From assembly GCA_965277405.1 (NCBI GenBank), contig OZ255726.1, positions 1,568,001 to 1,632,000 of the forward strand: a DNA stretch of 64,000 nt, written 5' to 3'. The stretch is from Gammaproteobacteria bacterium (GTDB lineage: Bacteria > Pseudomonadota > Gammaproteobacteria > G965277405). This document shows, one piece after another, positions 6,502 to 63,074 of this stretch. The notes under the pieces are model-generated. The model was given only the letters and a program-made list of their open reading frames with translations. It was not told where the DNA came from and searched no databases. Position 1 is the stretch's first letter; every line of letters begins with the position of its first letter. Made by a program: the position numbers and the translations under genes.

Positions 6502-6580
6502 GGGAAGCTCTGACTAATTCGCTGAGTGTGCGCGGTTGTTGCTCTTTTTTAGCCCATCATTGCTTTAATCATAGCTGGCG
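6502..6580 (+). mobile_element. Internally deleted, degenerate MITE copy (both ends only)
   Basis: GGAAGCTCTGACTAATTCGCTGA matches the left end and GCCCATCATTGCTTTAATCATAGCT matches the right end of the family, about 80 bp in total. Confidence 0.6.
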
Positions 6581-6633
6581 TAATGGCAGTTATCTTGTTG
6601 CACAATGCGTGTCAGAGTTGGGCGGTGTTGCCA

Positions 6634-7407
6634 TTATTTTGGTGGGCGCGGGTTATCTACTTGTTGTTGATACAGTTCAATGAGTTTGGCATATTTCATA
6701 TACGAATGGAAGGCGGAGGTTATGGCGACAGTTGTGCCATCAATTCCTTGAAATATCCCGCCCTTGAAAATCAATTTCTTGATAAACGCATACGCGCCAT
6801 GCCGCAATGGCGCGAGTGGCGATGGCTTTTTTTTGCCAGTAGATTTTAATGCCCATGCATCATGAGAGCTGAGCCAATTGATCCGCATTATCCAATGTGA
6901 ATAATTTTCATACGTATAGTGCAGCATGTGGCAATCAAGTTGTTTGATCCGTTTGGCTTTGACACGGGCGTGTTTTTTTTGTGGCAGATACGCTGCAGTA
7001 TGTTTATTGTATAGGCGGATAACATAGTCTGGATAAAATCCCGCAGCACGTATCCAATGACTGCCAACAAAATTTTTGCGTTTGATGGCGTAGCCGTCAC
7101 ATGCTTTAGAAAACGCTAATATGGGTATTTGTTGCTGGGCATCAATATCGAGGCGTTCATCTGCATCGATGCTCAAAATCCAATCGAATTTGGCGTATTG
7201 CACGCCAAATGCCTTTTGTGGCCCGTCGCCTAAATATTCCTGCAGATATACTTCAGCACCATGTGCCTTGGCGATAGCAACCGTGTCGTCTGTGCTCAGT
7301 GAATCAACAACAATCACTTGGTCACACACACCTTGCAGCGATGCAATGCAGCCTGCGATAGTTGCAGCCTCGTTTAAGGTAATAATCGTTGCGGTAATTC
7401 CTGTCAT
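6634..7407 (-). CDS. Glycosyltransferase family 2 (WaaE/KdtX-like LPS core glucosyltransferase)
   Basis: IITLNEA, VVDSLSTDDT, WILSIDADE and YPDYVIRLY motifs. Confidence 0.9.
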   Translation of the reverse strand: MTGITATIITLNEAATIAGCIASLQGVCDQVIVVDSLSTDDTVAIAKAHGAEVYLQEYLGDGPQKAFGVQYAKFDWILSIDADERLDIDAQQQIPILAFSKACDGYAIKRKNFVGSHWIRAAGFYPDYVIRLYNKHTAAYLPQKKHARVKAKRIKQLDCHMLHYTYENYSHWIMRINWLSSHDAWALKSTGKKKPSPLAPLRHGAYAFIKKLIFKGGIFQGIDGTTVAITSAFHSYMKYAKLIELYQQQVDNPRPPK

Positions 7408-7556
7408 CGTCTGTGCTCAAAAGTTAGCTAATAAATATACCGCCACTCGATGGAAATTGCGATGCTTTACCAGTATGGATTTTAATCAATACGCATAACA
7501 ATAACCAATTATCAGTATTTAAAAAAATAATCAGAGGTTCGCAAAGGGTAACTGGA

Positions 7557-8468
7557 TCAGATTTTCAGTAGCGCAATCGCGATATCAGCAGCTAAAGCAG
7601 CATTGTTTTTGACTAAAGCAATATTGGCTTGTAAGGTTTTACCGTGTGAAAGATCGTTCAGCTTTGCCAATAAAAATGGGGTAACAGCTTTTCCTTGAAT
7701 GCCTTGATCATCGGCTTGTTGCAGCGCAGCTGTAATCAATCGCTCCATAGTTGCAAGCGGTATTTCGTCGCTGACTGCAATAGGATTGGCAATCAACTGC
7801 CCTTGCTGGAAGCCTAGCATACCTCGCAGCTGATGGAGCTTAGCTATTTCCTGCGGGGTATCAACACGTAATGGCGCGGATATAGTCGATGTGCTCGACC
7901 AAAAAGCCGGCAAGAAATCTGCACGGTACGCCATGAGTGGCACACCATGAGATTCAAGAACTTCTACCGTTTTTGGAATATCTAAAATTGCCTTCGCTCC
8001 TGCTGCCACCACACTAACAGGAGTAATTGCCAATTCATATAAGTCAGCTGAAACATCAAAGCTGTGCTCAGCACCACGGTGGACACCGCCAATCCCTCCA
8101 GTGGCAAACACCGCAATATTAGCAAGATGGGCAATTGTCATAGTTGCGGCGACAGTCGTCGCGCCTACATATCCGGCTTGGATACAATGGGCAATATCAC
8201 TGCGGCTTATTTTTTTGGCATCTTGTTGCTGCGCCAGGGCTGTTAGCTCAGCAGTGGTGTGACCAACATGCACAACATGGTTGCTTACCGCAATCGTGGC
8301 AGGGGTGGCTCCAGCGTCAATAATAATTTGCTCCACTGCCAATGCGGTTTCTATATTCTGGGGAAAGGGCATGCCGTGGGTGATGATGGTGCTTTCTAAC
8401 GCAACAATTGGGTCGCCATTTGCCCGTGCTTGAGCAACTGCAGGGCTATAGCTAATTGGCAGTGACAT
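7557..8468 (-). CDS. psuG: Pseudouridine-5'-phosphate glycosidase
   Basis: VALESTIITHGMPFPQN, FATGGIGGVHRGA, SADLYEL and GKAVTPFLL motifs. Confidence 0.95.
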   Translation of the reverse strand: MSLPISYSPAVAQARANGDPIVALESTIITHGMPFPQNIETALAVEQIIIDAGATPATIAVSNHVVHVGHTTAELTALAQQQDAKKISRSDIAHCIQAGYVGATTVAATMTIAHLANIAVFATGGIGGVHRGAEHSFDVSADLYELAITPVSVVAAGAKAILDIPKTVEVLESHGVPLMAYRADFLPAFWSSTSTISAPLRVDTPQEIAKLHQLRGMLGFQQGQLIANPIAVSDEIPLATMERLITAALQQADDQGIQGKAVTPFLLAKLNDLSHGKTLQANIALVKNNAALAADIAIALLKI

Positions 8469-10988: not shown

Positions 10989-11093
10989 GGAAACTCTGAT
11001 TAACGCGCTGATGGAGCGAGTTTGCCTGCAATTGCTGCTGATGGCAAGGCGCAAACCGCTGCGCGCATGACCTAGCGATACGCCAAGGGATGC
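10989..11093 (+). mobile_element. Truncated MITE copy (left ~105 bp)
   Basis: GGAAACTCTGATTAACGCGCTGATGGAGCGAGTTTGCCTGCAATTG...CGCCAAGGGATGC matches the family; the right half is absent. Confidence 0.85.
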
Positions 11094-11283
11094 TACCACT
11101 AGCCCCTGTTTGGAAAAAGATTTTTACCCAGACCTGCCAACGTCATACGCAGATGGTGTTTTCAAGTATAATAATGGCAGTGAAATTTCTATACAACCGT
11201 CGAATACTCTGTATTTTTTTGTATTCTGCTCATCACTACAATCTTATACAATCTTATTTTAAATACTGGAGTACATCTTGAGT

Positions 11284-12498
11284 ATGAACAACATCAACAA
11301 AATTGTCCTCGCTTATTCTGGCGGGCTGGATACTTCAGTCATCGCCAAGTGGCTGATGGACACGTATCAAGCTGAAATCATCACTTTTACGGCGAATATT
11401 GGTCAAGGAGAAGAGGTTGAGCAGGCGCGAGCAAAAGCGCAGCAGCTTGGCATTGATAATATCTATATTGAAGACCTGCAAGAGGAATTTGTTCGTGACT
11501 TTGTCTACCCGATGTTGCGCGCCAATGCGCTTTACGAAGGTGAGTATTTGCTCGGCACTGCGATTGCACGACCATTGATTGCCAAGCGACTAATTGCGAT
11601 TGCTGCTGCACATAACGCTGAGGCAATTGCCCATGGTGCCACTGGCAAAGGCAATGACCAAGTACGCTTTGAATTGAATGCGTATGCATTGAATCCAAAC
11701 ATTCAAGTCGTCGCACCTTGGCGTGAGTGGGATTTAAATTCCCGCAGCTCGCTATTAGCGTATTGCCAACAACATGGGATTGCTGTCGAGCAACAACGTG
11801 ACGATAAACCTCCATATTCGACCGATGCAAACCTGCTGCATACTTCGTTTGAAGGTGGTCAACTTGAAGACCCAAACACAACCGCTCCTGAAAACATGTG
11901 GCAACGCACCGTATCTATTGAAAACGCCCCTAATCAAAGTGAGGATATCGCCATCACTTTTGACCAAGGCGATGCGGTTCGATTGCACGATACCCCATTC
12001 ACCCCGGCGCAATTACTCACTGAGTTAAACCTGATAGCAGGCAAACATGGTGTAGGTCGTGCAGATATTGTTGAAAACAGATACGTAGGGATGAAGTCGC
12101 GCGGCTGCTATGAAACCCCAGGCGGGACAGTATTGTTAAAAGCACACCGGGCGATTGAGTCAATAACGCTTGACAGAGAACAAGCCCATTTGAAAGATTC
12201 ATTGATGCCACGCTACGCTGAAATGATTTATAACGGCTATTGGTTTGCCCCAGAACGCCACAGCCTGCAGCAATTGATCGATCATACCCAGCACAACGTT
12301 AATGGTGTGGTGCGGCTACGCATTTATAAAGGCAACGTGATTGTGCTTGGACGCAGCTCGCCAAACAGCTTGTATGACGCCAATATTGCCAGTTTTGAAG
12401 CAGACCAGGGCGCGTATAACCAACAAGACGCCGCAGGGTTTATTCGCTTACACGCGCTGCGCCTCAAACTGCAACATAACAGTCGCGGTGGTCAATAG
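11284..12498 (+). CDS. argG: Argininosuccinate synthase
   Basis: [23 protein letters not shown] and [18 protein letters not shown] motifs. Confidence 0.98.
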
Positions 12499-12525: not shown

Positions 12526-12806
12526 GGAAGTTCTGATTAAGTCCATGACGGGCGAGACGGAGAAAAAACGCTGATGATAACTAGACTCAGTGCGCAGATA
12601 ATACTGGTGGTATTATCAAGTGCTGCAACGACGTTAGCGCAGCGTTTTTTCCCGTCCTTCTGTTGAATATACTTTGGGTTTGCTGCCATTGCTGCGCTTG
12701 CTGTGTTGCATCCCTTTGCGTATATGCTACGGCATGCGCTTAGCGCCTTGCAATCATCAGCAATGGCAGGCAAACTCGCTCCATCAGCGACTTAATCAGA
12801 GGTTCC
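12526..12806 (-). mobile_element. Complete MITE copy, reverse orientation
   Basis: Terminal inverted repeats GGAAGTTCTGATTAAGTC / GACTTAATCAGAGGTTCC; CTAA direct repeat at 12522-12525 and 12807-12810. Confidence 0.92.
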
Positions 12807-12902: not shown

Positions 12903-13493
12903 ATGGATAACGTGACTATGGATAACGCGCCACGACAGCCAATAATCGCTGGAGTAGATGAAGCTGGTCGTGGCCCATTAGCCGGGGCAGTATATGCCGC
13001 TGCGGTGGTGCTCGACCCTACGCATCCGCTGCAAGGCTTAGCAGATTCAAAAAAATTATCGGCGGCAAAACGCGCAACGTTGCGGGTGCAAATCCAGCAA
13101 CACGCGCTTGACTGGTGCATTGCCAGTGCCAGCGTTGCAGAAATTGACACGCTTAATATTCTGCAAGCAACCTTACTGGCGATGCGGCGTGCCGTTGCTG
13201 GACTATTAACTATACCACAGCAAATCCTTGTTGATGGTAATGCCAATCCAGCCAAACATGACCCGCGCTTTGTATGCCATGTTAGCGGAGATGCAACGTT
13301 TGCCTGCATTAGCGCGGCATCTATTTTGGCGAAAACAGAGCGTGATGCAGCAATGCTGGTGCTCGATAGCTATTATCCACAATATGGGTTTGCTCAACAC
13401 AAGGGCTATCCGACAGCTGTGCATCGCCAGAATATTGCAGCATATGGCGCTAGTATTGTGCATCGTCACAGTTTTCGTTTAACGAAAGCCTGA
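12903..13493 (+). CDS. rnhB: Ribonuclease HII
   Basis: AGVDEAGRGPLAG, DSKKLS, ISAASILAK and HKGYPT motifs. The start region is a 15-bp tandem duplication, so ATG 12918 is an alternative start. Confidence 0.95.
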   Translation: MDNVTMDNAPRQPIIAGVDEAGRGPLAGAVYAAAVVLDPTHPLQGLADSKKLSAAKRATLRVQIQQHALDWCIASASVAEIDTLNILQATLLAMRRAVAGLLTIPQQILVDGNANPAKHDPRFVCHVSGDATFACISAASILAKTERDAAMLVLDSYYPQYGFAQHKGYPTAVHRQNIAAYGASIVHRHSFRLTKA

Positions 13494-13677
13494 TGAAATC
13501 AAGCAATTGCAACAAACTCGCCCCGTCAGCGCGTTAATCAGCAGTTGCGAATGGATGCTTGGCAGATAGCACATCTACTAAGATGTTGGCTCGCTTGCTG
13601 GATGATTCCAATATGATGCAAAATTGCGTTGCAATCATCAAGATTGGTTTGCGCATTCGCTTGAATAAGAAGGTATT

Positions 13678-18411: not shown

Positions 18412-18437
18412 GGAAGCTCTGGTTAACTCCATCAAGG
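18412..18437 (-). mobile_element. Solo right-end remnant of the MITE
   Basis: GGAAGCTCTGGTTAACTCCATCAAGG compared with family right end GGAAGCTCTGATTAAGTCCATGATGG. Confidence 0.55.
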
Positions 18438-23877: not shown

Positions 23878-24362
23878 TTATATTGTCAGAGCTTTGTAAT
23901 GATTGCAATACGATATTACCTGGCACAACATGCCCTTACCAGCAAAGCCATTGTTTACCGCAACTTTCATCTAAAAAAAAATTCTCTGATTTCTTGCCGA
24001 TATCATTGACATATATTTTTTGTGAAAATATAGGGATACCGTAATAATCGTCCCGAATTTGTAATACAAATGCACGAGAAATAATGATGAAATATCAAGG
24101 ATATATAATTTTAAGCTAGCCTCATTGCCTGGGCAGGCCTTGGTAGGACGCCAGCACAACTGCCATTACTCATGCTCACAACATGCACGGTCAGTGCTGC
24201 AGCATGCGCTTGCTTACATATTGTATTTACTAAATGCTGATGATCGTTGTCAATACCGAGCTTCCCTAATGATGTGTCACCAACACCAACAATATTGGAC
24301 TGGATGCCGCATCGTTGTTACTCCGTCTCACCCATCTTGGACTGCAGCAGAGTTACCATAAT

Positions 24363-25049
24363 TTAGCAGGCAGGTATCACGGCCTGTGTGGCGATTTTAG
24401 GGAGTGGCAAATCGAGGCGCTCCCAGGTGGAGCAGTATTTTTGTAGTGCTGCGTCTGGATTGACCACAACCGGATGTGCAACACGCTGCAGCAACGGCAG
24501 ATCGTTGATTGAGTCTGAATAAAACCAAGTGTTTGCATACGATAAATCGGGCTTGGCGGCGAACCATTGTTCAACGACGACGCATTTGCCAACATTGAAT
24601 GTTGCGGTGCCGAGAATTTTCCCAGTAAAACGACCTGCCACTTGTGCTAGCATCGTTCCAAATGCCGCGTCCACATCAAACAGCTGTGCTGCGGCTTTGA
24701 CCAAATACATATTTGATGCTGAAACGATAATAATATCATCGCCTGCGGCGCGATGTTGCGCAATCCGCTCAACAAGTTCAGGGTATATCCAATATTGGAC
24801 AACGGTTTCCATATATTCTTGCAACAATACTGTGCGTTGTGCACCGACAGCATTCAAGACATCTGCAACGAACACAATATAGTCGGTCATCTGCAATTCG
24901 CCGGTATCATACAAGCGCATGAAGCCACGGTTACGTTGCTCATACCACTGTGCATCTACCACGTTTTTGTGGATCAAAAATCGCCCCCAACCGTAATCGC
25001 TGTCCGCAGCAATCAGCGTTTTATCTAAATCAAAGACAGCTAATTGCAT
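24363..25049 (-). CDS. HAD-IB family hydrolase (possible histidinol-phosphatase)
   Basis: FDLDKTLI, IVSAS and FYSDSINDLPLL motifs. Confidence 0.88.
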   Translation of the reverse strand: MQLAVFDLDKTLIAADSDYGWGRFLIHKNVVDAQWYEQRNRGFMRLYDTGELQMTDYIVFVADVLNAVGAQRTVLLQEYMETVVQYWIYPELVERIAQHRAAGDDIIIVSASNMYLVKAAAQLFDVDAAFGTMLAQVAGRFTGKILGTATFNVGKCVVVEQWFAAKPDLSYANTWFYSDSINDLPLLQRVAHPVVVNPDAALQKYCSTWERLDLPLPKIATQAVIPAC

Positions 25050-25062
25050 GGCTATGAACTAA

Positions 25063-25346
25063 GGAAGCTCTGATTAACTTGCTGATGGAGCGAGGTTGCC
25101 TGCAATTGCTGATGATTGCAAGGCGCATTCCGCAGGTGCATGCCGTAGCATATACGCCAAGGGATGCAACACAGCAAGTACCGCTTGTAGGCAAACCATC
25201 ATATATTCAATAGAAGGACGGGAAAAAACGCTGCGATCCGTTGTTGCAGAACTTGATAATACCACCAGTATTATCTGCGCACTGCGTCTAGTTATCATCA
25301 GCGTTTTTTCTCCGTCTCGCCCATCATGGACTTAATCAGAGCTTCC
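25063..25346 (+). mobile_element. Complete MITE copy overlapping the argF 3' end
   Basis: TIRs GGAAGCTCTGATTAA / TTAATCAGAGCTTCC; CTAA duplication at 25059-25062 and 25347-25350. Confidence 0.95.
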
Positions 25347-26248
25347 CTAAGTGAAATCATCAACGCTTTTTGGCTATGCAACCGATTTTCTGTGCCATGC
25401 CAAACCCCAGAGCATGCGTCATGCAATACATATTCATCGACTTCTTCACCGCGGTTTGCGGGTAAACAATGCAAAAACAATACATTTGTACTTGCTTGTG
25501 CGATCAATGCTCTATTGACTTGATACGGGGAAAACTTCATATTTCTTGCTGCTGACCCCGTATCACCCATCGAAGCCCAGACATCGGTAACGATTAAATC
25601 TGCACCGCGCACTGCTACCACAGGGTCTGCTTCTTTGGTATAATTCCTGCCATATTGCGCGACTATGGCTTGGTCAGGTTCATAGCCATCAGGACCGGCG
25701 TGAACCAGTTCAAATTTGAGCAAATATGAGGCTTCAATATATGAGTTAAGAATATTATTGCCGTCGCCCATATAGGCGACTTTCCTTCCTGCAATATCGC
25801 CGCGCAATTCAGAAAATGTTTGCATATCCGCAATGATTTCACACGGGTGATGCGTGTCTGTTAAGCCGTTGATAACTGGCACTTTGGCTACAGCTGCAAA
25901 CCTCTCTACCTCAGCTTGCTCAAAGGTGCGAATCATCACCATATCGACCATTGATGTCACCGCCATTGCAGTGTCTTCAATCGATTCGTTGCGGCTCAAC
26001 TGCAATGCATCTCTTTGTAAAAACATCGCGTGACCACCAAGATGGTAAAACCCAGCCTCAAATGACACCCGCGTGCGTGTGGAAGGTTTTGCAAAAATCA
26101 TTGCCAAGGTTTTGCCCTGAAATACCTTGGGGTTTTTTCCTTGGTAATGATCCCGCTTAATTTGCTTTGCGGCATCTATCAGTGCCACAAATGACTGGGC
26201 TGATAGGTCAGCTATTCTCAAAAAATGTTTCATAAATATAGTTGTCAC
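25298..26248 (-). CDS. argF: Ornithine carbamoyltransferase with MITE-derived C-terminal tail
   Basis: KPSTRTRVSF, HPCE, TDVWASMG, FLHCLPA and ENRLH motifs; the last 16 codons lie in the element. Confidence 0.95.
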   Translation of the reverse strand: MTTIFMKHFLRIADLSAQSFVALIDAAKQIKRDHYQGKNPKVFQGKTLAMIFAKPSTRTRVSFEAGFYHLGGHAMFLQRDALQLSRNESIEDTAMAVTSMVDMVMIRTFEQAEVERFAAVAKVPVINGLTDTHHPCEIIADMQTFSELRGDIAGRKVAYMGDGNNILNSYIEASYLLKFELVHAGPDGYEPDQAIVAQYGRNYTKEADPVVAVRGADLIVTDVWASMGDTGSAARNMKFSPYQVNRALIAQASTNVLFLHCLPANRGEEVDEYVLHDACSGVWHGTENRLHSQKALMISLREALIKSMMGETEKKR

Positions 26249-28634: not shown

Positions 28635-28911
28635 GTAAGCTCTGATTAACTTGCTGATGGATCGAGTTTGCCTGCAATTGCTGATGATTGCAAGGCGCAT
28701 TCCGCAGGTGCATGCCGTAGCATATACGCCAAGGGATGCAACACAGCAAGTACCGCTGCAGCAAACCGTTATATATTCAACAGAAGGACGGGAAAAAACG
28801 CTGCGCGCCGTCGTTGCAGCACTTGGTAATACCCACCAGACCCACCAGTATTATCTGCGTACTACGCTTAAGTTATCATCAGCGTTTTTTCTCCGTCTCG
28901 CCCATCATGGA
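28635..28911 (+). mobile_element. Near-complete MITE copy lacking the right TIR, abutting the rne stop
   Basis: Full internal sequence is present and ends at CCCATCATGGA, about 6 bp from the rne TAG. Confidence 0.9.
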
Positions 28912-28916
28912 GTCAA

Positions 28917-30629
28917 CTAACGGCTGCGATTTACTGGATTATTTTGCTTGCGCCTGCGGCGTTGTTGTTGCGTCTGTCTTTTGTTACGGTTTTGTTGTTG
29001 CATTGGTTTTGGCGGCGTTTTCTCTGCAGAAAACAGTGATTGTAATACACGGATGAACGCAGATGATGGCTTGACAACCTTGATGCTACTATTATCAATT
29101 TTAGGCTTCATATGGCGATGAATGGTATTGCGTAAGGCGGCGTTGACGTCTGCTGTATGTAATTCAACGTGGGTATTATTGCTAATCACAAACGATTTAT
29201 TGTCTTCGTCAATCCGCGTGATTTCAAACCACGGCGGGAGCATTTCAGCAGATGGTAGAATAATAATGCTCAGGCTAAATACATTTTCTAGTTCAGCAAT
29301 TTGTTCCTTCTTCTCATTTAAAATATACGTTGCGGTGCTCAACGGTAACGATGCCCGTAGTTGTGCTACTTTATCTTTACATGCCTGCTCTTGCAGAATA
29401 CGAATAATGGAGAGCGCAAATGATTCTGTACTGCGTATAAAGCCATTACCGTGGCAACGTGGACAACTCATTGTTGTCGATTCCGACAAAGAAGAACGGA
29501 GGCGTTGCCGTGACATCTCTAATAAACCAAATTTGGATATACCGCCAATTTGAATGCGGGCACGATCAATTTTTAAGGCGCTTTGTAGCGTGTCTTCAAC
29601 GATTTTTTGATTCTTGGTTTGCGTCATATCAATGAAGTCAATAATGATGAGTCCGCCAATATCGCGCAGCCTGAGTTGACGTGCTATTTCTACTGCAGCC
29701 TCAACGTTGGTTTGCAAGGCTGTATCTTCAATGCTTTTTCCTTTGGTTGCTCGTGATGAGTTGATATCTATTGCGACAAGTGCCTCTGTGGTGTCAATTA
29801 TAAGGGATCCACCAGAAGGGAGTTGTACTTCACGGAGAAAAGCAGTGTTGAACTGCTCTTCTATTTGATGCCGAGAGAATAAAGGAATTAATTCGTCGTC
29901 ATACAGCTTTATCCGCTCACGCAAACTGGAATGGAGTTTTGACACTTGCTCAATCATTTCTGCGTATATTGTCGGGTCGTCAATAATACATTCTTCGACA
30001 TCGTCAAAGAAGTAATCACGAATAACACGGCTGACTAAATTATTCTCTTGATAAATTAAGCAAGGTTTGTCTTGTTGTGCTGCGACATCTTGTATGGTCT
30101 GCCAAAGCGCCCCAAGGTAGTTAAGGTCAACAGTAATATCACCAATAGGTCGATCCAAGCCTGCGGTTCGCATGATAATGCTAGCACCACTAGGGACGGT
30201 AAGTTGTGCAATAATCGACTTCATTGCTTGACGATCATGCTCTGATACCCGACGGCTGATACCGCCACCATTTGGCTTATTCCCTAAAAACACTAAATAT
30301 CGACCTGCTAAAGAGATATATGTAGTGAGTGCTGCTCCTTTAGTGGCACGTTCCTCTTTTTCTACTTGGACAAGTATTTTTTGACCTTCTTGGATATCAG
30401 CAATGTTGGCGATATCTTTAAATGGTAAAAAACCATGTTTTTCTGTGCCAAAATTAACAAACGCAGCATCGAGGCTGTTTTCAATACGGGTAATAATGCC
30501 GACATAAACGCTTGATTTTATCTGGTACTTACGTGCTGACTCTATTTCGACATCATACAGCCAATTGTCTTCGACTAAAGCAACACGTTGCTCTTCGCTG
30601 TGTGTTGCATTGATAAGAATTTTTTTCAT
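28917..30629 (-). CDS. rne: Ribonuclease E (compact, 570 aa)
   Basis: AAFVNFG, KGAALTT, IDINSSRAT, LRDIGGLIIIDFIDM and CPRCHG motifs, then an amphipathic helix and an Arg-rich tail. Confidence 0.93.
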   Translation of the reverse strand: MKKILINATHSEEQRVALVEDNWLYDVEIESARKYQIKSSVYVGIITRIENSLDAAFVNFGTEKHGFLPFKDIANIADIQEGQKILVQVEKEERATKGAALTTYISLAGRYLVFLGNKPNGGGISRRVSEHDRQAMKSIIAQLTVPSGASIIMRTAGLDRPIGDITVDLNYLGALWQTIQDVAAQQDKPCLIYQENNLVSRVIRDYFFDDVEECIIDDPTIYAEMIEQVSKLHSSLRERIKLYDDELIPLFSRHQIEEQFNTAFLREVQLPSGGSLIIDTTEALVAIDINSSRATKGKSIEDTALQTNVEAAVEIARQLRLRDIGGLIIIDFIDMTQTKNQKIVEDTLQSALKIDRARIQIGGISKFGLLEMSRQRLRSSLSESTTMSCPRCHGNGFIRSTESFALSIIRILQEQACKDKVAQLRASLPLSTATYILNEKKEQIAELENVFSLSIIILPSAEMLPPWFEITRIDEDNKSFVISNNTHVELHTADVNAALRNTIHRHMKPKIDNSSIKVVKPSSAFIRVLQSLFSAEKTPPKPMQQQNRNKRQTQQQRRRRKQNNPVNRSR

Positions 30630-31700: not shown

Positions 31701-31940
31701 GGAAGCTCTGATTAAGTCCCAAGCAACAGCAATATCAGCTAGAAAGATATACAATGGTGAATCTATTTGAATATTTGAATAAGCGGATAATCTTATGAAA
31801 CAAACAACTTTTGCCAGTGCTGCATACGACCACAAGAAAGTAACAACGAAACCAAAAAAAATTCTTGCAGTTAATGGACAAATTAGCTCCATGGCAACAG
31901 TTGTTAGAGTTAATAGAACCGCATTATCCCAAGAAAGGTA
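31701..31940 (+). mobile_element. IS5-family (IS5 group) left end and frameshifted transposase N-terminus
   Basis: CTAG then GGAAGCTCTGATTAAGTC. ATG 31795 gives MKQTTFASAAYDHKK, continuing after a frameshift as FLQLMDKLAPWQQLLELIEPHYPK. Confidence 0.85.
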
Positions 31941-40496: not shown

Positions 40497-40497
40497 T

Positions 40498-40901: not shown

Positions 40902-41185
40902 GGAAGCTCTGATTAAGTCGCTGATGGAGCGAGTTCGCTAGAAAATTATGATGATTGCACGGAGCGGCTTGCGTCTGTATGCCGTAGCAATACGGCAAAA
41001 ACCGCAACACAGCAAGTACCGCTTGTAGGCAAACCATCATATATTCAATAGAAGGACGGGAAAAAACGCTGCGCTAACGTCGTTGCAGCACTTGATAATA
41101 CCACCAGTGTTATCTGCGCACTGCGTCTAGTTATCATCAGCGTTTTTTCTCCGTCTCGCCCATCATGGACTTAATCAGAGCTTCC
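40902..41185 (+). mobile_element. Complete MITE copy
   Basis: TIRs intact; TTAG duplication at 40898-40901 and 41186-41189. Confidence 0.93.
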
Positions 41186-41213
41186 TTAGCGTTGTATACT
41201 TTACCTTCCCAAT

Positions 41214-47194: not shown

Positions 47195-47202
47195 GTGCTA
47201 TG

Positions 47203-48300: not shown

Positions 48301-48607
48301 CTTCTCAGCAACTAGTTGCTGATTGTCGCGATGCTTTAATATTAAGTATCAGTTGTATTGCACTGCAAAATAATCACAAACTGTATCCTGGCGCAGCTAT
48401 GCCTGCCAAGTTTGCAGGTTTCATTGCGCTCCAACATCACAAAACTGTATCACATTGATGGCTGGATAGATGTCAGATTAAGCAAAAATGTGCGCGTTTG
48501 TTATTGGCTAGCAGCGCTTGTATGGTTGCTGTTGGTGTTGACGCGACTGCGGCTGTCGTTGCGAACAAGGCGTGGCAGAATGTTGCAGAGCCGCGATTAT
48601 TGTTTAG

Positions 48608-48887
48608 GGAACCTCTGATTAAGTCGCTGATGGAGCGAGTTTGATGGCAATTGCTGATGATTGCAAGGCGCAATCCGCTAAGCGCATGCTGTAGCATATA
48701 CGCCAAGGGATGCAACACAGCAATTACCATCAAACCCAAAGTATATTCAACAGAAGGACGGGAAAAAACGCTGCGCTAACGTCGTTGCAGCACTTAATAA
48801 TACCACCAGTATTATCTGCGCACTGCGTCTAGTTATCATCAGCGTTTTTTCTCCGTCTCGCCCATCATGGACTTAATCAGAGGTTCC
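48608..48887 (+). mobile_element. Complete MITE copy overlapping the bolA 3' end
   Basis: TIRs GGAACCTCTGATTAAGTC / GACTTAATCAGAGGTTCC; TTAG duplication at 48604-48607 and 48888-48891. Confidence 0.95.
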
Positions 48888-49195: not shown

Positions 49196-49197
49196 TA

Positions 49198-49893
49198 TTA
49201 AATCGGTATTGGTATCGGATTGATTTTTTTCAGAGTGTAGAGCACTTCACTGCCATCTGCGCGGAGTTGATAATATACAGCAATTCGATACTCAAGTTTG
49301 GGGATGAGCCAAAAATATTCCTTGCGCACCGGGTCAGCAAACAGCACTTCTAATTTAACAGTTTGAAAGGTAGCAACAAGCGTTTCCTTTGTTTCCATGC
49401 CATGATTACGAAACGTCACTTTTTTGCGGGATTTCCCGTTGTATGTTTGATACATGAAAAGCTGTTGCTGCGGATTCTTCTGTAAATCTTGCGCCAGCTG
49501 CAATGCCATTGCAGCCGGGTCAATGCTTGATTGCCTACTTTGGGCATCGAACTGTACCCGCACTGTTTTATCTTGAAATATCCCCCGTCCAGAATCCGCA
49601 TAACTGCGTACATAGATGCGACCATTCTCCCAAATAAAAGAACTTTCAGTGACAGCACCAAACCCCAGAATATTGGCATCTACCACAAATATAAATCCAG
49701 CGCCGACTTCAGTTAGCGTTTGCTTGAGTAAACCAGTTATCGGCAAAAAGCCGAAATGTGTTTTAATTTCATATGTGTAGGCAAATGGCTTTGGATCTGC
49801 TCGAATAGGAAGCGCTATTGAGGATAGTATGCCCAGTATACATCCAGCAACGCCCCATTTGCTTGCGTGATTTTTTATGGGTAATAACCACAT
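49198..49893 (-). CDS. Exported protein, DUF3108-like
   Basis: Signal/TM segment, beta-rich body, DPAAMALQLAQDL and FWLIPKLEY motifs. Confidence 0.55.
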   Translation of the reverse strand: MWLLPIKNHASKWGVAGCILGILSSIALPIRADPKPFAYTYEIKTHFGFLPITGLLKQTLTEVGAGFIFVVDANILGFGAVTESSFIWENGRIYVRSYADSGRGIFQDKTVRVQFDAQSRQSSIDPAAMALQLAQDLQKNPQQQLFMYQTYNGKSRKKVTFRNHGMETKETLVATFQTVKLEVLFADPVRKEYFWLIPKLEYRIAVYYQLRADGSEVLYTLKKINPIPIPI

Positions 49894-50222
49894 CTTAATT
49901 CATCTCAATTCAACTCATACAATAATAACAAGCAGGTATGCAACCAGTGCTTGCAAACTAGCCTGCGCATGCGTTGGCTTATAAACACTATATCACTAAC
50001 CTGAGTATATAGTTTTCTAATCAAAGTTGGCTTGGCATTACGGGAATATAAGTTGCGCAGCGCAAATATACATATTTAGCGGCTTCTTAATAGTCGGCAG
50101 ATATATGCTAGTACACGTTAATAATTTGTAAGTACCGAGTTTAGATCAACATGTTTGCTGATTACTTGGCGCACATCCTGTAGCAGACACTGCAGGAACG
50201 AGCATTAAAATCCAACTTGTAG

Positions 50223-50320
50223 TTGCCAGCATATGGTATTGTGACCTTGACACGGGGTAATGTTGCAGCAATAGATCGCGACAACAACGTGTTGGCAATT
50301 AAACATTCATCAACAAATAT
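50223..50320 (+). pseudogene. Remnant of L-ribulose-5-phosphate 4-epimerase (AraD-like) N-terminus
   Basis: LPAYGIVTLTRGNVAAIDRDNNVLAIKHS resembles AraD [29 protein letters not shown]; nothing further follows. Confidence 0.65.
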
Positions 50321-50435
50321 GGGACGACATGCAACAGCTTACACAATTGCCTGCATACACGTCTATTCCTTAATACTACAAATAGTGTTAAAGGGGCTTT
50401 TCAGTTAAGTTCTAGTGCTGAGTTGGAGTGAAAAT

Positions 50436-51383
50436 ATGGTAACCATTGAGAAATTTGATTCCAGAATTGAACGAATTTTTCTGGCAGACGCAACGCTGGA
50501 AAAAGTTTGTACTGGATCGCTATGGAATGAAGGTCCTGTCTGGCTAGAAACAGCGCAAACCTTACTTTGGAGTGATATTCCAAATAACAGAATATTAAGT
50601 TGGAATAGTAAGCAAGGTTTGCAGGTATGGCGCTCCCCAGCGAATTTTACCAACGGCCATTATTTAGATTTACAGGGCAACCTATTGCATTGCAGTCATG
50701 GTGGTCGCTCCATTGAGAAAACCGACTTACAAACGGGGGAAATACTCACCTTGGTGGATCGTTATCTTGACAAACGGCTGAACTCACCGAATGATTTAGT
50801 AGTCAAGTCTGATGGTAGTATTTGGTTTACTGACCCGCCTTACGGCATCTTATCTAATGTGGAAGGCTATCAAGCGGCGTCTGAGCAGCAAGGCAATTTT
50901 GTGTTTCGTTATGACCAAGCTAGCAATGATTTATCGGTGGTTTGTAGCAGTATGGAAGAACCCAATGGTCTTGCCTTTTCCCCAGATGAATCCCTGCTGT
51001 ATATTGCCGACACTTCTGCGGCTTTGCGTAAAGACGGTGCAGGCAATCACCATATTCAGGTATTTGATGTGGTGCAGGGCAGTGAGTTAGCTAATGAAAG
51101 GCTGTTTGCCGTGGTAGCGCCGGGTGTAGCGGACGGTTTTCGAGTAGATGAACAAGGTTGGATCTACACTTCCTCAGCAGACAGCATCCAGATTTATCAT
51201 CATGATGGCACCTTATTGGGTAAAATATTAGTCCCTGAAAAAGTATCGAACTGTACTTTTGCCGCCGACTATGCAACAAGCCATCTTGGCGCAACGTTGT
51301 ATATAACCGCGTCTACTTCTATTTATCGGATTAGACTTAATACCAGCGGAGCACATATTGCAACTTCACATAGTAGTATGTGA
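50436..51383 (+). CDS. SMP-30/gluconolactonase family protein
   Basis: WNEGPVW, LNSPNDLVV, WFTDPPYG, EPNGLAFSPDE and ADGFRVD motifs. Confidence 0.92.
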   Translation: MVTIEKFDSRIERIFLADATLEKVCTGSLWNEGPVWLETAQTLLWSDIPNNRILSWNSKQGLQVWRSPANFTNGHYLDLQGNLLHCSHGGRSIEKTDLQTGEILTLVDRYLDKRLNSPNDLVVKSDGSIWFTDPPYGILSNVEGYQAASEQQGNFVFRYDQASNDLSVVCSSMEEPNGLAFSPDESLLYIADTSAALRKDGAGNHHIQVFDVVQGSELANERLFAVVAPGVADGFRVDEQGWIYTSSADSIQIYHHDGTLLGKILVPEKVSNCTFAADYATSHLGATLYITASTSIYRIRLNTSGAHIATSHSSM

Positions 51384-51420
51384 TTGCTCGTTTCTAATTT
51401 AAATTTATAATGGAAATAGC

Positions 51421-51681
51421 ATGAGTTTTACAGAATATGTAGCTATTTTAACAGATTTTAAGAGCAGTGTTGTATCTGTTAATAACAATAACTACGCTGA
51501 CATTTGTCGCGCACAAGACCTGTTGATTGCTGAGCTAACGCAGCAAGGAGCAGTGATTAAAGGGTGGAAGTTGGTGGATGATGACGGCAGTTTCATCATA
51601 TCTCCTATTTTCGATTTTCAGATTTTTGCCAATCATGGCGAAGTTGTATCAGAGGTTCCACAGGAATGTCAGCAGCAGTAA
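51421..51681 (+). CDS. Short hypothetical protein, probably truncated
   Basis: ATG preceded by a GGA RBS-like sequence; IKGWKL motif; ends near a TIR-like TCAGAGGTTCC. Confidence 0.35.
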   Translation: MSFTEYVAILTDFKSSVVSVNNNNYADICRAQDLLIAELTQQGAVIKGWKLVDDDGSFIISPIFDFQIFANHGEVVSEVPQECQQQ

Positions 51682-51734
51682 ATAACAGCTACCCTGCCAC
51701 TAAATTCTTTTGACAAAAAGACCCTTGCTTGGCG

Positions 51735-53282
51735 TTAAAACACCACACTGGGCAGCCATATTGCCAACGACGGCCACAGCCAGAGCACAGCAATGCCCAG
51801 CACCTGCAACGCGATAAACGGCATCACGCCAGCATAAATATGCCTAGTAGTAATTTCTGGTGGGGCGGCACTGCGCAGGTAAAACAGCGAGAAACCAAAG
51901 GGCGGCGTTAAGAACGATGTCTGCAGATTGATGGCAATTAATATTGCCAGCCAGACAGGATCATGACCCATCATAATCAAGCTCGGCACAATCAACGGCA
52001 GCAGAATTACGCTGATTTCGACAAAATCCAAGAAAAATCCCAGCATGAAAATCAGTACCATGCAGAAGATCAACGCCCCTGTTGGACCGTGGGGCAGCGA
52101 CGCAAGGATTTGTATAACATGGTCCTTACCGCCCAAGCCGATAAACACCAGCGAGAACATGCTGGCCGTCAGGATGGTAGCAAAAATCATCGCTGTTATG
52201 GTCATGGTTGATGTCAATGCCGATGTCAGCACACCACTCTTCCAAGCCTGTTGTAGAGATAACGCCAGCGCAGCAACGCCAGCAATTGCCAGCACGACAT
52301 ATCCTGCACCAACAACGTAGTCAAACCCAGTCAAATCACTGCGCTGCAGCCGTACTGGCACAATCCTTGCGACCACAGCAACGAGCAGCAACGCAGCCGT
52401 GCCAGCCAATATTAGCTGGCGATTGGGACTTTGGCGGATGCCAGCCATCAGCATCGCCCCAATTGCGCCCACCGATGCCGCCTCGGTTGGGGAGGCGATC
52501 CCAACAAGAATCGCGCCCAGTACCGCAATGATCAGCAACACTGGCGGCAAAATGGCGCGCAATACCTCGCCCATGTGCGGGCGGCCATCGTCACTTTGCA
52601 CAGGGGGCATGTCCTGAGGCCGCAAATAGCCCAAAATCAGAACATAGCCAATATAGATGGCTACCAGCGTCAGACCTGGGAACAATGCAGCAGCAAATAT
52701 CTGCCCGACAGAAATGGTTTCGATGCTAAATTTACCATGTTCATACTGCGCCTGCTGATAGGAAGACGACATCACATCCGACAAAATAATCAGTAAAGTT
52801 GACGGTGGAATGATCTGCCCGAGCGTGCCCGCCGTGCAAACAAGCCCAGACGCCAGTTTAGGATTGTATCCAGTGCGCAACATGGTCGGCAGCGCAATCA
52901 TACCCATGGCAATCACGGTCGCCCCAACAATCCCAGTAGATGCCGCCAATAATGTGCCGACCAAAATCACCGCAATGCCGAGACCACCGCGTAACTGACC
53001 AAACAACCTACCCATGGTATGCAGCAGTTCTGCGGCGATGTGCGATCGTTCCAGGACTACACCCATCATCACAAATAGCGGAATCGCAATCAGGACATCA
53101 TTGGTCAGCGTGCCAAAAAACCGCTGCCCCAGCGAACGCAGCAACGCGATATTCATGACGTCTGACGCCCAGCCGATATAGGCGAAAATCACCGCCACCC
53201 CAGCAATCGAGAACAACACTGGAAATCCCAACAGGATGCAGCCGAGCAGGGCGGCAAACATCAAAAAATCAAGATATTCCAT
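51735..53282 (-). CDS. dctM: TRAP transporter large permease
   Basis: LIAIPLFVMMG, GTLGQIIPPS and QTSFLTPPFG motifs. True start is MEYLDF at 53282; the longer track ORF starts inside the MITE. Confidence 0.92.
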   Translation of the reverse strand: MEYLDFLMFAALLGCILLGFPVLFSIAGVAVIFAYIGWASDVMNIALLRSLGQRFFGTLTNDVLIAIPLFVMMGVVLERSHIAAELLHTMGRLFGQLRGGLGIAVILVGTLLAASTGIVGATVIAMGMIALPTMLRTGYNPKLASGLVCTAGTLGQIIPPSTLLIILSDVMSSSYQQAQYEHGKFSIETISVGQIFAAALFPGLTLVAIYIGYVLILGYLRPQDMPPVQSDDGRPHMGEVLRAILPPVLLIIAVLGAILVGIASPTEAASVGAIGAMLMAGIRQSPNRQLILAGTAALLLVAVVARIVPVRLQRSDLTGFDYVVGAGYVVLAIAGVAALALSLQQAWKSGVLTSALTSTMTITAMIFATILTASMFSLVFIGLGGKDHVIQILASLPHGPTGALIFCMVLIFMLGFFLDFVEISVILLPLIVPSLIMMGHDPVWLAILIAINLQTSFLTPPFGFSLFYLRSAAPPEITTRHIYAGVMPFIALQVLGIAVLWLWPSLAIWLPSVVF

Positions 53283-53285
53283 TAG

Positions 53286-53580
53286 GGAACCTCTGATTAA
53301 CTCGCTGATGGAGCGAGTTTGATGGCAATTGCTGATGATTGCAAGGCGCATTCCGAGAGCGCATGACCTAGCATATACGCCAAGGGATGCAACCCAGCCA
53401 GCGTAAGCAATTGCCGCAAACCGTTATATATGCAACACAACGACGCGAAAAAACACTGCGCTGCGTCGTTGCAGCACTTGGCAACACCCACAAGACCACC
53501 AGTATTAGTTGCGCACTGCGCTTAAGTTTCATCAGCGTTTTTTCTCCGTCTCGCCCGTCATGGACTTAAGCAGATCTTCC
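53286..53580 (+). mobile_element. Complete MITE copy between dctQ and dctM
   Basis: TIRs present; TTAG duplication at 53282-53285 and 53581-53584. Confidence 0.93.
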
Positions 53581-54096
53581 TTAGTAATCCTTGCTGGCAA
53601 CGCCACCGCGCAAAATAATAATTTGCCGCAGCAGGCAGGATACAGACTGAATAAGCAACAGAACACAAAATGCTAAAATAAATGATTTAAGCAACCACAC
53701 CGCAGGAATACCGCCTACCGAAATTGCGCCTTCCATAATCAAGACTGAATTCAGCACCGATGGCCAGGTCCAGTATAACAATGCCGACATTGATGGGATC
53801 GCTAATACGGCAAAGCCAAACGTATCAATTCGCGCCTTGGTCATCTTGCGTGCAGTCGCATAGAAAATATCGACGCGCACATGGCGGTTGACCAACAACG
53901 TATAGCCAGCACCTAGCATAAAAAGCCCAGCATGCAGATAAAGAACGCTTTCATTGAGCGCGATTGAACTGAACCCGAAAACATAGCGCAGCAACACCAC
54001 AGCAAACTGCACAAGAACCATTAGCAGAGCAAACCAACGCACAGTCATTCCTGTCCACAGGTTGACTTGATCGAGCATATCAGCAATACGTTGCAT
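53581..54096 (-). CDS. dctQ: TRAP transporter small permease
   Basis: VVLLRYVF and GYTLLVNRHVRVDIFY motifs; four TMs; start approximate. Confidence 0.9.
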   Translation of the reverse strand: MQRIADMLDQVNLWTGMTVRWFALLMVLVQFAVVLLRYVFGFSSIALNESVLYLHAGLFMLGAGYTLLVNRHVRVDIFYATARKMTKARIDTFGFAVLAIPSMSALLYWTWPSVLNSVLIMEGAISVGGIPAVWLLKSFILAFCVLLLIQSVSCLLRQIIILRGGVASKDY

Positions 54097-54159
54097 GCAA
54101 TTTCTTAGCAAATGCCACAACCAGCGCAACGGATAGCCCCCGCACTGGTTTAATTTGCA

Positions 54160-60760: not shown

Positions 60761-62125
60761 ATGCAAGTTATTTGGACAAATCAGGCGTTAACGACTGCTG
60801 GTTGGGAACAAAACGTGCGAGTCGTAATTGGTGATGATGGTAGAATTGCTAGCATTCAGGCAGATGTAGCTGCGACGGGCACCACTGTTGGCATATTATT
60901 GCCCGCCATTTCTAACCTGCACAGCCATGCCTTTCAGCGCGCCATGGCTGGCTTAACCGAAAAACGCGGTCTTAATCCGCTGGATACGTTTTGGACATGG
61001 CGGCAATTGATGTTTCGCTTTCTTAACCAGTTGACCCCCGATCATGTCGAAGCGATCGCAGCCTTTGTCCAGATGGAAATGCTGGAAGCCGGTTATGCCA
61101 ACAATACTGAGTTTCATTACCTACATCACCAGCCAGGTGGGCATTTGTATGACAATATCGCCGAAATGGCCGAACGCATTGCCAGTGCGACCAGCCACAC
61201 TGGTATCGGTCTGACATTATTGCCCGTACATTACCAGTTTGGCGGATGTGACAAACGCCCACTGGGTCTAGGACAAATCCGCTTTGGCAACGATCAGGAT
61301 CGCTTCGCTAAATTGTATCAAAAATCTGTACAGACCCTGCAACACCTGCCAGCAGATACCCGCATGGGAGTGGCGCCGCATTCGCTGCGCGCGATCGACC
61401 GCGCTGACTTGGTTTTGACAGCCCAGTTGTCTAGAGACGGCTTGGTGCACATGCATCTGGCCGAACAGATCGCCGAAGTCGAGGAAGTAGCCGCATGCTG
61501 GGGTAGACGCCCGGTCGAATGGCTGCTTGATAACGTCAACATTGATGAAAACTGGTGTCTGATTCATTGCACCCAAATGCAGGAACACGAAACACAGGGT
61601 CTTGCCAAAACAAGGGCGGTGGTGGGACTGTGCCCGATCACAGAATCAAGCTTGGGTGACGGTATTTTTGACGGCGTGCGCTATCTTGCAGGCGGCGGCA
61701 AGATTGGCATCGGCTCGGATGCCAATATCCGCATTTCCTTATCCGAGGAAATCCGCACCTTGGAATACAGCCAGCGTTTGCGCGACAATTCGCGCGCGGT
61801 CTTTGCCAACACTGCAAAATCCACGGGGCGTCGCCTGTACGAGGAAGTTGCGCGCGGCGGTGCGCTGGCAGCTGGTCGCGACGCAGGAAGAATTGAGGTT
61901 GGCGCGCTAGCTGATCTGCTGGCGCTTGACGCTGCGGCAGTTAATCTGATCGGGCGGACAGGCGATACGATTCTGGATACGTATATCTTTGCTGGAGATG
62001 ATCGCATGGTGCGTGATGTCTGGTCTGCTGGTCGCCATATGGTGAAAAATGGGCAGCATGTTGCCCATGATGCGCTTACCAACAACTACCGGCAGGTGAT
62101 GAAACAACTCAGGGAAGTAGTCTGA
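60761..62125 (+). CDS. hutF: Formimidoylglutamate deiminase
   Basis: NLHSHAFQRAMAG, EFHYLHH, APHSLRA and HMHLAEQ motifs. Confidence 0.97.
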   Translation: MQVIWTNQALTTAGWEQNVRVVIGDDGRIASIQADVAATGTTVGILLPAISNLHSHAFQRAMAGLTEKRGLNPLDTFWTWRQLMFRFLNQLTPDHVEAIAAFVQMEMLEAGYANNTEFHYLHHQPGGHLYDNIAEMAERIASATSHTGIGLTLLPVHYQFGGCDKRPLGLGQIRFGNDQDRFAKLYQKSVQTLQHLPADTRMGVAPHSLRAIDRADLVLTAQLSRDGLVHMHLAEQIAEVEEVAACWGRRPVEWLLDNVNIDENWCLIHCTQMQEHETQGLAKTRAVVGLCPITESSLGDGIFDGVRYLAGGGKIGIGSDANIRISLSEEIRTLEYSQRLRDNSRAVFANTAKSTGRRLYEEVARGGALAAGRDAGRIEVGALADLLALDAAAVNLIGRTGDTILDTYIFAGDDRMVRDVWSAGRHMVKNGQHVAHDALTNNYRQVMKQLREVV

Positions 62126-62154
62126 GCGCAGCAGCACCAACCAACTGGCAAAGT

Positions 62155-62823
62155 GTGCATGACGCGGTGTTACACCGCATTCATAGCCGTGAATGGCAGC
62201 CAGGGGGTAAGATTCCCAAGGAAGCCGACCTTGCTGAACAGTTAGGCTGCGCGCGCGCCACGGTCAACCGCGCATTGCGCCAGCTCGCAGCTGACGGTTT
62301 TTTGGAGCGCCGCCGCAAAGCCGGAACCCGCGTTGCCGCCTATCCGGTCAAACGAGTCAAACTTAATATTCCGGTGATCCGGCTTGAGATCGAGGGTCGC
62401 GGTCAGCAATACGAGTATGACCTGCTAGCTAGCCAACGCCGCCATCCGCCACCAGCAATATGCGCCGAGCTTAGGGTCACGCCCGCAAGCGATATGCTGT
62501 ATATCACCTCGTTACATTTGGCCGATGGCAGACCGTATATGTTTGAAGAACGCTGGGTAGCGGTTGCGGCTATACCGCAAATCGTCACTGCCGACCTGGC
62601 TACAATAAGTGCCAATGAATGGCTGGTGCTGCATGCGCCCTATACCAAGGGCTGCATGTCATTTTCTGCAGTGCTGGCATCAGCTAACGACGCTAGTATC
62701 CTGCGCACCAACAAGGATGCGCCGCTATTTTTGATTAACCGTAACACGTGGGCAGGCGATCGTGGCATTACATCGGTGCGGCTGTTATTTGCTCCTGGCT
62801 ACCGCATGCACATTGGCATTTAA
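62155..62823 (+). CDS. hutC: Histidine utilisation repressor (GntR HTH + UTRA)
   Basis: IPKEADLA...RATVNRAL...GTRV HTH plus UTRA domain; the real start may be further upstream. Confidence 0.88.
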   Translation: MHDAVLHRIHSREWQPGGKIPKEADLAEQLGCARATVNRALRQLAADGFLERRRKAGTRVAAYPVKRVKLNIPVIRLEIEGRGQQYEYDLLASQRRHPPPAICAELRVTPASDMLYITSLHLADGRPYMFEERWVAVAAIPQIVTADLATISANEWLVLHAPYTKGCMSFSAVLASANDASILRTNKDAPLFLINRNTWAGDRGITSVRLLFAPGYRMHIGI

Positions 62824-62837
62824 TTTTTTTGAATTAG

Positions 62838-63074
62838 GGAAACGCTGATTAACTCGCTGCTGGGGCGAGTTGGCTGCAATTGCTGATGATTGCCAGGCGC
62901 AAACCCAAAGTATATTCAACACAACGACGGGAAAAAGACTGAGCTAACTTCGTTGCAGCACTTGGCAGCACCCACAAGTCCCCACCAGTGTTAGCTGCGC
63001 ACGCACCTTGCTATCCATCAGCCATCTAGCGTTGTTGCTGCGTCTCGCCCGTCATGGACTTAATCAGAGCTTCC
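62838..63074 (+). mobile_element. Diverged, internally deleted MITE copy
   Basis: TIRs GGAAACGCTGATTAA / TTAATCAGAGCTTCC; TTAG duplication at 62834-62837 and 63075-63078. Confidence 0.9.

Follow-up and report, generated by a model that had tools for sequence, protein, structure and literature searches.

Miniature elements with IS5-type ends and a widely shared folded interior in the genome of a gammaproteobacterium

When the same short non-coding sequence recurs over and over in bacterial DNA, often where genes end, it has to be asked what this sequence is, what moves it, what its interior consists of and why it is found at these places. The question is raised by 64,000 nucleotides from the genome of a gammaproteobacterium (GenBank assembly GCA_965277405.1, contig OZ255726.1, positions 1,568,001 to 1,632,000; this whole stretch is referred to as the window, and positions are those of the window unless they are called genome positions). 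[quoted passage not shown] The description is borne out by a profile census, by the ends and target duplications, and by the presence of a partner insertion sequence (IS): the MITE family is authentic, has many copies, was active recently and goes with an IS5-group IS, and apart from its widely shared folded interior it is bacterial selfish DNA of an ordinary kind. Very probably the repeats are MITEs bounded by the ends of a 1,228-bp IS5-group IS resident in the same genome and moved by its transposase.

The repeat family is real and consists of a non-coding element of about 285 bp with 16-bp inverted ends GGAAGCTCTGATTAAG and 4-bp CTAA/TTAG duplications. The genome is a single contig of 2,174,577 bp with 44.8% G+C. 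A profile made from 166 near-full-length BLAST matches within it, applied with removal of opposite-strand overlaps, gives 170 full and 153 partial non-overlapping matches, which together amount to 66,005 bp or 3.0% of the genome. The full copies lie on both strands (82 plus, 88 minus), and every 100-kb bin of the genome has copies except the last, short one. The consensus is 295 nt long, with a median identity of the copies to it of 90%, and the 170 matches that span the model measure 256–331 bp (median 289; calculated before overlap removal). No frame of the consensus is open throughout, the longest stop-free stretch being 74 codons. In eight pairs the two copies share at least 99% identity, and the copies in general are mosaics built from a few variant blocks. 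Outside this genome the element as a whole was not found: BLAST with one copy gave no match in 40 genomes of the class or in 4 genomes with related transposases, and an exact interior 22-mer had 0 matches in collections of genome contigs and metagenome contigs, from which the genome's own records were possibly excluded. Rfam has 0 matches in the window at gathering scores and only chance-level ones for one copy (E 1.7 and 2.1). The proposal that the element is lineage-specific thus holds for its ends and for the whole element; it does not hold for the interior, since the hairpin module described below is found in many other Proteobacteria.

The ends are the GGAA-type inverted repeats that the note had described. 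The left end has 0–2 mismatches in 137 and the right end in 142 of the 170 full copies, and the 16 bp are perfect in 42 left and 61 right ends. Identical 4-bp flanks are found in 67/170 full copies, where about 0.7 would be expected by chance, and include 31 CTAA, 19 TTAG and 5 ATAG; the six exact duplications reported for the window (one CTAA, five TTAG) are all present. Elements of the IS5 group duplicate YTAR targets. At 34 places in the genome two element ends stand only 4 nt apart. By a rough estimate that was not computed, about one fifth of the harmless YTAR sites are themselves duplications beside elements, and on this estimate such tandem junctions require no special targeting of ends.

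Pairs of ends occur in the genome in three size classes, of about 47, 285 and 1,228 bp. The largest is the partner IS, which belongs to the IS5 family, is 1,228 bp long, has the same 16-bp ends as the MITE and is flanked by CTAA. It is present in 36 full-length copies, three of them 100% identical, with flanks that are tetramers of the CTAA/TTAG/CTAG type; TTAA also occurs among the flanks of both IS and MITE. Its transposase is a DDE protein of 315 aa that reaches 330 bits against NF033581, the NCBIfam model for IS5 family transposases (cut-off 140), and at least 10 of the IS copies have an open frame of 319 codons. In total the genome holds 70 matches to PF01609, the best with up to 108 bits. 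The single transposase of about 315 aa, the 16-bp ends that start with GGAA and the 4-bp duplications of the CTAA/TTAG type liken the element to the IS5 group, and the claim of a non-autonomous IS5-type element with YTAR targets is supported, an autonomous partner with the same ends being present in the genome. Relatives of the transposase number in the thousands and have at most 76% identity outside its own cluster; the nearest named record is a metagenome-assembled genome (MAG) of Candidatus Endonucleobacter bathymodioli with 75% protein identity, whose IS has related but different ends (GGAATCTCTAAATAAG) and CTAG flanks. Because of these protein identities (a comparison of proteins, not with ISfinder) the partner IS is regarded as unnamed.

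Recent movement within the genome, with the MITE ends in use, is evident from several arrangements. For example, a 1,516-bp unit composed of a MITE, the tetramer CTAA and an IS is present at three loci with unrelated flanks (Table 1), where 1516/1516 positions are identical. At each locus the unit has its own duplication (CTAA, TTAG and TTAG), and therefore the outer end of the MITE has acted as a transposon end. Another copy (genome 391054-391339) sits with a TTAG duplication in the centre of a further copy, whose rejoined halves align over the junction with well over 100 other copies. One copy lies between two tandem ISs, and six other IS–IS junctions without such a copy serve as paralogous empty sites. 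Deletion derivatives that share breakpoints also recur in the genome. What is expected of a MITE is thus found together: small size without coding capacity, terminal inverted repeats, target duplication, an autonomous partner and paralogous evidence of movement.

The interior is folded. One copy is predicted to fold with −118 and −121 kcal/mol on the two strands (z −8.1 and −9.0) into a terminal stem and two long internal hairpins, and these hairpins are two inverted, diverged copies of one hairpin of about 110 nt, each running from the centre of the element to the nearest end. Since RNAalifold gave almost no structure on the 170 copies or on sub-alignments owing to indels, the consensus fold was used in a pair test over the genome's copies, which yielded 1,792 broken-pair cells versus 101 double-change cells, the shifted controls giving equally many double changes. 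The set used for covariation within the genome comprised 26/170 copies, namely 6 from the window and 20 spread evenly over the identity range.

How, then, would the element move? The family, its ends and duplications, the partner IS, the recent movement and the sharing of the interior module are directly supported. The 315-aa DDE transposase, supplied in trans, would recognise the ends common to IS and MITE and would insert the MITE at CTAA/TTAG (YTAR) sites, duplicating 4 bp. The hairpins are perhaps kept because a fold-back shape helps the ends to meet and renders insertions harmless, which is a guess. Several points speak against this account. MITE and IS have just 24 and 19 terminal nt in common, and the interior of the IS does not match the hairpin module when searched with the covariance model R2 (see below); the element is therefore not a simple deletion derivative of the IS. 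The second hairpin shows no covariation beyond shuffles in this genome (4 pairs; 75/500 shuffles reach this number), and the genome's own copies are therefore uninformative on selection for the fold. The evidence of movement is paralogous only; the genome is the sole member of its order among those compared, so that orthologous empty sites are outside the comparison, and the contigs from three public runs of one study stop within element ends and thus provide neither filled nor empty alleles. Moreover, 103/170 copies are without identical flanks, which together with the median identity of 90% indicates that many copies are old and possibly immobile.

Although the whole element was found in this genome only, its hairpin was also found elsewhere. 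A covariance model of the second hairpin (R1) was made from the 26 copies, and thus from this genome only. Of 150 genomes of the class 3 had matches to it, one with 20 (best E 6.6e-9) and two with a single match each, and these matches conserve letters as well as pairs. In the genome richest in them the hairpin lies between different inverted ends, TGTACTGCRCCRCTCTTGGAGG, which have 50 matches with at most 2 mismatches versus 0 for the control and which pair at about 188 or 264 bp. With the sequences found by R1 added to the set (R2), and with at most 25 candidates scored per genome, so that module copy numbers are lower bounds, the module was found in 11/150 other genomes of a phylum-wide sample, in 37/151 genomes from the order to which a genome titled Thauera aromatica belongs, and in 1/151 from the phylum that includes a MAG titled Nitrospiria; it was found in 0/5 genomes reached via transposase loci. 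R2 also finds it with 42.6 bits on the plasmid pAcX50f (NZ_CP010421.1, about 19.1 kb) of Azotobacter chroococcum NCIMB 8003. When BLAST was used against plasmids, one module query had no match and the other matched the Azotobacter plasmid only (53 nt at 83%).

Wherever the flanks were read, the module is within an element of about 190–300 bp that bears inverted ends of its own. It keeps one orientation relative to the nearest end and often forms an inverted pair with a second hairpin, and in most cases the tetramer outside the ends contains TAG. For example, the element of about 270 bp on pAcX50f and like elements in 50 genomes have the same module, the double-hairpin layout and the TAG-containing flank of the MITE; the plasmid element differs from it in its inverted ends, GGTCTGTTGACG..., and there is no annotation under the match, the gene tables for plasmids being incomplete. 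At loci of three other genomes (L129 1501-1714, L150 1501-1714 and L145 1393-1611) two modules of opposite orientation are neighbours, with a CCCGAAGGG-type centre between them, as in the MITE.

In the comparison across genomes the hairpin, as judged by its pairs, does covary. From 34 loci searched, one near-duplicate being omitted, 35 matches from 28 other genomes plus the plasmid were obtained. Over these, 37/42 pairs have changed on both sides, in 356 cells versus 107 in shuffles, a count that 0/500 shuffles reach and that compares with 49–115 in slid controls; the alignment was fitted to the covariance model, which favours structure in such counts. A third model (R3) was made from these 35 sequences, none of which is from this genome; they had been gathered with R2, to which this genome had contributed. 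R3 matches the second hairpin in 6/6 window copies that have it (39–87 bits), and on the opposite strand 5 copies also match it at the first hairpin (E 6e-8 to 0.06); R2 agrees with this. The MITE is therefore an inverted, diverged pair of a widespread hairpin placed between ends that fit the local IS.

The folded interior is thus common to MITEs of other end types in many Proteobacteria, and a description of it was not found in the literature searched. Rfam has no match to the module in six loci of other genomes, and four 12- to 13-mers of the module led only to unrelated papers in full-text literature. In the parts that were accessible, which leaves supplements aside, neither the 2024 review of prokaryotic MITEs (PMC10969869) nor a MITE survey preprint of the same year (10.1101/2024.01.18.576219) describes a core shared between families with different ends, and the latter, as far as it was accessible, finds MITE sequences to be mostly confined within genera. 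In PMC2188519, a gonococcal paper from 1987, the indexed text contains one 12-mer of the module two times, and the readable part lacks it.

Does the hairpin have a function of its own? It may be that the interior is a structured module with a function, either as RNA or as single-stranded DNA, to which a conserved factor of the host or of a mobile element binds. The MITE would then be only its current vehicle, and the module might end or stabilise the transcripts of genes behind which it has landed. This is compatible with the MITE account given above, and we regard it as possible though rather doubtful. The double changes in 37/42 pairs and the very low folding energy are what such a function would lead one to expect, and beyond the pairs there are conserved unpaired or asymmetric stretches (CGTTGC, CTTG, an AACAA-type loop and GCGCCTTG), the constant orientation toward the nearest end, and in the 35 matches an excess of G-U pairs over A-C mismatches (67 versus 44, p=0.036). 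It should be considered, however, that besides the fitting of the alignment to the model, a palindrome kept for DNA-level reasons would yield the same counts, and that the asymmetry between the strands is weak. A consensus scan of 40500-54000 (13.5 kb) found 36 promoter-like sites versus 29.4 expected and 23 terminator-like sites versus 14.0 expected, none of which has a position common to the three copies in this stretch, and with respect to neighbouring genes the copies show no significant bias in orientation (41 same and 61 opposite, p=0.06; 28 and 44, p=0.08). The absence of an Rfam family also counts against it. With the same reserve we consider it conceivable that the hairpin of about 110 nt, usually as an inverted pair, is an undescribed widespread structured module that either has a conserved partner binding to it or serves its own function, and that different IS5-family ends have acquired it repeatedly in Proteobacteria and on at least one occasion in the phylum of the Nitrospiria-titled MAG.

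We now come to the position of the copies relative to genes. In the window, 6/7 near-complete copies have the 3′ end of a gene at most 27 nt away or inside the element, and the earlier note had concluded that gene 3′ ends are targeted. Genome-wide, a stop codon ends exactly at the element edge, within the duplicated target, in 21 copies, and in 9 copies an open reading frame (ORF) terminates at the TGA of the element end. Indeed, this end holds two stop triplets, TGA at positions 9–11 and TAA at positions 13–15, so that two of the three frames are closed within 15 nt; the third closes after 16 codons. For a test of the sites the 67 copies with clean duplications were excised in silico, ORFs were called again, and CTAA/TTAG sites were taken as the null; the gene calls are crude (greedy ORFs of at least 100 aa, n=1,725, covering 83% of the genome), and the p-values are uncorrected. 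Of the excised sites 9 are at stop codons, 42 are intergenic and 16 are within ORFs. Stop-codon sites make up 9/51 (17.6%) of the non-disruptive insertions versus 8.4% of all non-disruptive CTAA/TTAG sites (p=0.037), and 17/42 intergenic insertions lie between convergent genes, where 18.7% would be expected (p=0.001). When a site touches an ORF, it falls within the last 60 nt in 20/25 cases.

The association with 3′ ends is thus real as a distribution. This does not mean that the element actively seeks terminators, stop contexts or structures formed in replication or transcription at gene ends, which we consider improbable. The window pattern and the twofold excess at stop codons are what such targeting would produce, as is the enrichment between convergent genes. 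However, the share of insertions that fall into the final 60 nt of an ORF is no different from the null (20/62 versus 23.6%, p=0.13), nor is the nearest gene end of intergenic insertions (23 3′ and 19 5′ ends, p=0.28), and 35/170 copies are between two gene starts; the crudeness of the ORF calls and the uncorrected p-values have also to be kept in mind where the excesses are concerned. The bias that the note saw therefore exists, and active targeting is not needed for it. The distribution can probably be explained by a target that contains a stop, by ends that close reading frames and by the loss of harmful insertions: an insertion on or just before a stop codon leaves the gene closed because the target has TAA or TAG and the ends have TGA and TAA, insertions between convergent genes would likewise be harmless, and harmless insertions would survive selection, which would leave the 3′-end pattern.

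A further reading, in which the hairpins belong with the REP/RAYT or NTS/Ssn repeats and owe their spread or cutting to a tyrosine HUH transposase or to a small GIY-YIG nuclease and not to an IS5 transposase, is very unlikely. PF01797, the family of the Y1 transposase, has 0 matches at E≤0.01 in the genome, which is 98% complete, and PF01541 (GIY-YIG) matches only a frame of 653 codons, which from its length we take to be UvrC, and one weak fragment. Moreover, REP and NTS systems do not make the IS-type inverted ends and the 4-bp duplications seen here. Interior hairpins with an oriented conserved flank do resemble NTS repeats as far as these are described in the accessible part of PMC11893778; the NTS consensus printed there differs, however, from the core of the module. 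With neither a Y1 gene nor a small GIY-YIG gene found, an identity with REP/RAYT or NTS/Ssn is largely refuted. That the family is an artefact of assembly or a segmental duplication is scarcely conceivable, since the copies have unrelated flanks and individual 4-bp duplications, nested insertions exist, and contigs of two independent runs, X1 and X2, whose common study is possibly the source of the assembly, extend from unique flanks into the element ends.

Among known repeat systems the MITE can be likened by kind, not by sequence, to BrickBuilt/MITEPgRS of Porphyromonas gingivalis and MITEPsy of Pseudomonas syringae, which reportedly are short, non-coding, mostly intergenic, present in many copies and bounded by the ends of resident IS5-family elements. 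It is also alike in kind to ERIC and to the Rickettsia palindromic elements, to whose behaviour its own had been likened and which are small palindromic repeats at gene ends or in frame that are co-transcribed. The Correia elements of Neisseria (CREE/NEMIS) are alike in that they are abundant and small, have inverted ends, lie near genes and fold into a hairpin; they differ in their ends and in their duplication. The accessible part of the 2024 review documents promoters, a site for IHF and cleavage by RNase III for Correia elements and an effect on mRNA decay for ERIC at 3′ ends (PMC10969869). A likeness of the interior to Correia elements is unsupported: R2 had 0 matches at E≤1 in 2/2 genomes rich in the Neisseria uptake-sequence motif, the Correia content of both being unverified.

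In the window the inventory was taken from a profile search and a search for the end motif (Table 1). There are 5 full copies, 1 without the right end, 1 with an internal deletion, and fragments, in total 2,339 bp or 3.7%; a repeat scan of the window sees them as families of 4–6 copies of 86–162 nt. All seven positions named as near-complete copies are thus members of the family, although only five are full. The three named as fragments (6502, 10989, 18412) all bear element sequence, the first being in fact a miniature with two ends and the last a lone end. Less was left of the supposed scars of inverted repeats. The one near 24258 corresponds to a real fragment about 50 nt away, and no element sequence was found near 16080. 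Those at 7528 and 51648 (7526-7541 and 51644-51659) match the end with 4/16 mismatches, which is chance level: by arithmetic, the two strands of 64 kb should yield about 5 matches of this quality, and five sites with exactly 4 mismatches were seen, one of them (6564) inside the miniature.

Table 1. Elements of the MITE family and of its partner IS in the window, and genome loci of the composite unit
Feature	Position	Strand	Remarks
Miniature derivative, 77 bp	6503..6579	+	left end with 2 mismatches, right end decayed
MITE 5′ fragment, profile positions 2-110	10989..11096	+	nhmmer E 1e-31
Full copy, 281 bp, TTAG/TTAG	12526..12806	-	27 nt past stop of ORF 11278..12498
Decayed fragment, profile positions 4-139	13402..13546	-	nhmmer E 9e-9; not in the earlier note's list
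Solitary end, 2/16 mismatches	18412..18427	+	profile match absent beyond the end
3′ fragment, profile positions 247-298	24308..24359	+	nhmmer E 5e-7; 3 nt from stop of ORF 24363..25049 (-)
Full copy, 284 bp, CTAA/CTAA	25063..25346	+	profile and flank comparison
Copy without right end, profile positions 2-287	28635..28918	+	profile match; abuts stop of RNase E gene, 28917..30629 (-)
Parent IS, first 238 bp, 96.6% identical, left end perfect	31701..31938	+	comparison with partner IS
Full copy, 284 bp, both ends perfect, TTAG/TTAG	40902..41185	+	top R3 match, 87 bits
Full copy, 280 bp, TTAG/TTAG	48608..48887	+	profile match
Full copy, 295 bp, TTAG/TTAG	53286..53580	+	stop of ORF 53581..54129 (-) within duplicated target (distance 0)
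Copy with internal deletion, 2-70 and 129-298 of the profile joined, first hairpin missing, TTAG/TTAG	62838..63074	+	profile match
MITE+IS composite unit	genome 53721-55236, 1248041-1249556, 1528045-1529560		identical, own 4-bp duplication each

Some of these copies illustrate what has been said about hairpins and gene ends. In the copy at 25063 the hairpin cores are at 25089-25200 (inverted) and 25212-25322 (sense); an ORF on the minus strand, 25298..26248, extends 49 nt into this copy, and the start codon of the minus-strand ORF between it and the preceding 3′ fragment is 13 nt from its other end. The miniature begins 33 nt past the stop of a giant ORF. The copy at 62838 is 14 nt past the stop of ORF 62155..62823, the ORF on the opposite side ending 11 nt inside the copy. 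The same internal deletion as in this copy recurs in two more genomic copies, and the short form has therefore also moved.

Several further observations were made in the window. The giant ORF (47-6469, plus strand) continues upstream and is open over 27,110 nt, i.e., about 9,000 codons. The RNase E gene has just 570 codons, matches the first 516 of 1,068 profile positions and ends exactly at the truncated MITE; the C-terminal scaffold part of the enzyme may be absent or cut off. Weak DDE_Tnp_1 fragments are at 36199-36339 and 36359-36502 (37 and 27.5 bits), near a 16-mer that resembles the right end with 3 mismatches (36670-36685); BLAST with the partner IS has no match in 36199-36685, and this region has the look of a different, decayed IS5-family element. 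A local tandem duplication lies just upstream of the copy at 40902, with direct repeats 39905-40120 and 40493-40707 that are about 588 bp apart and 88–98% identical. X1 and X2 each have one contig in which 40898 is followed by 41312, so that 413 bp are skipped, namely this MITE plus another 126 bases; the joint depends on a side of just 27 nt, other contigs span the skipped right junction, and either a deletion variant or a repeat artefact is possible. Finally, none of the species representatives compared belongs to the order, family or genus of this genome, the nearest ones sharing only the class.

With 3% of MITE sequence and 36 IS copies, this small and phylogenetically isolated genome is heavily colonised by mobile DNA, and the MITE copies account for spurious ORF extensions and gene-end annotations in it. 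Beyond this genome, the interiors of MITEs are usually treated as filler, whereas here one folded module with compensatory changes and conserved unpaired bases is found between unrelated ends. If the conservation of the hairpin reflects a function, then it becomes testable why some MITEs succeed and what the hairpins do. And if the hairpin were indeed a selected cargo, the MITE families of distant bacteria would be its vehicles, with a breadth comparable to that of REP or attC hairpins.

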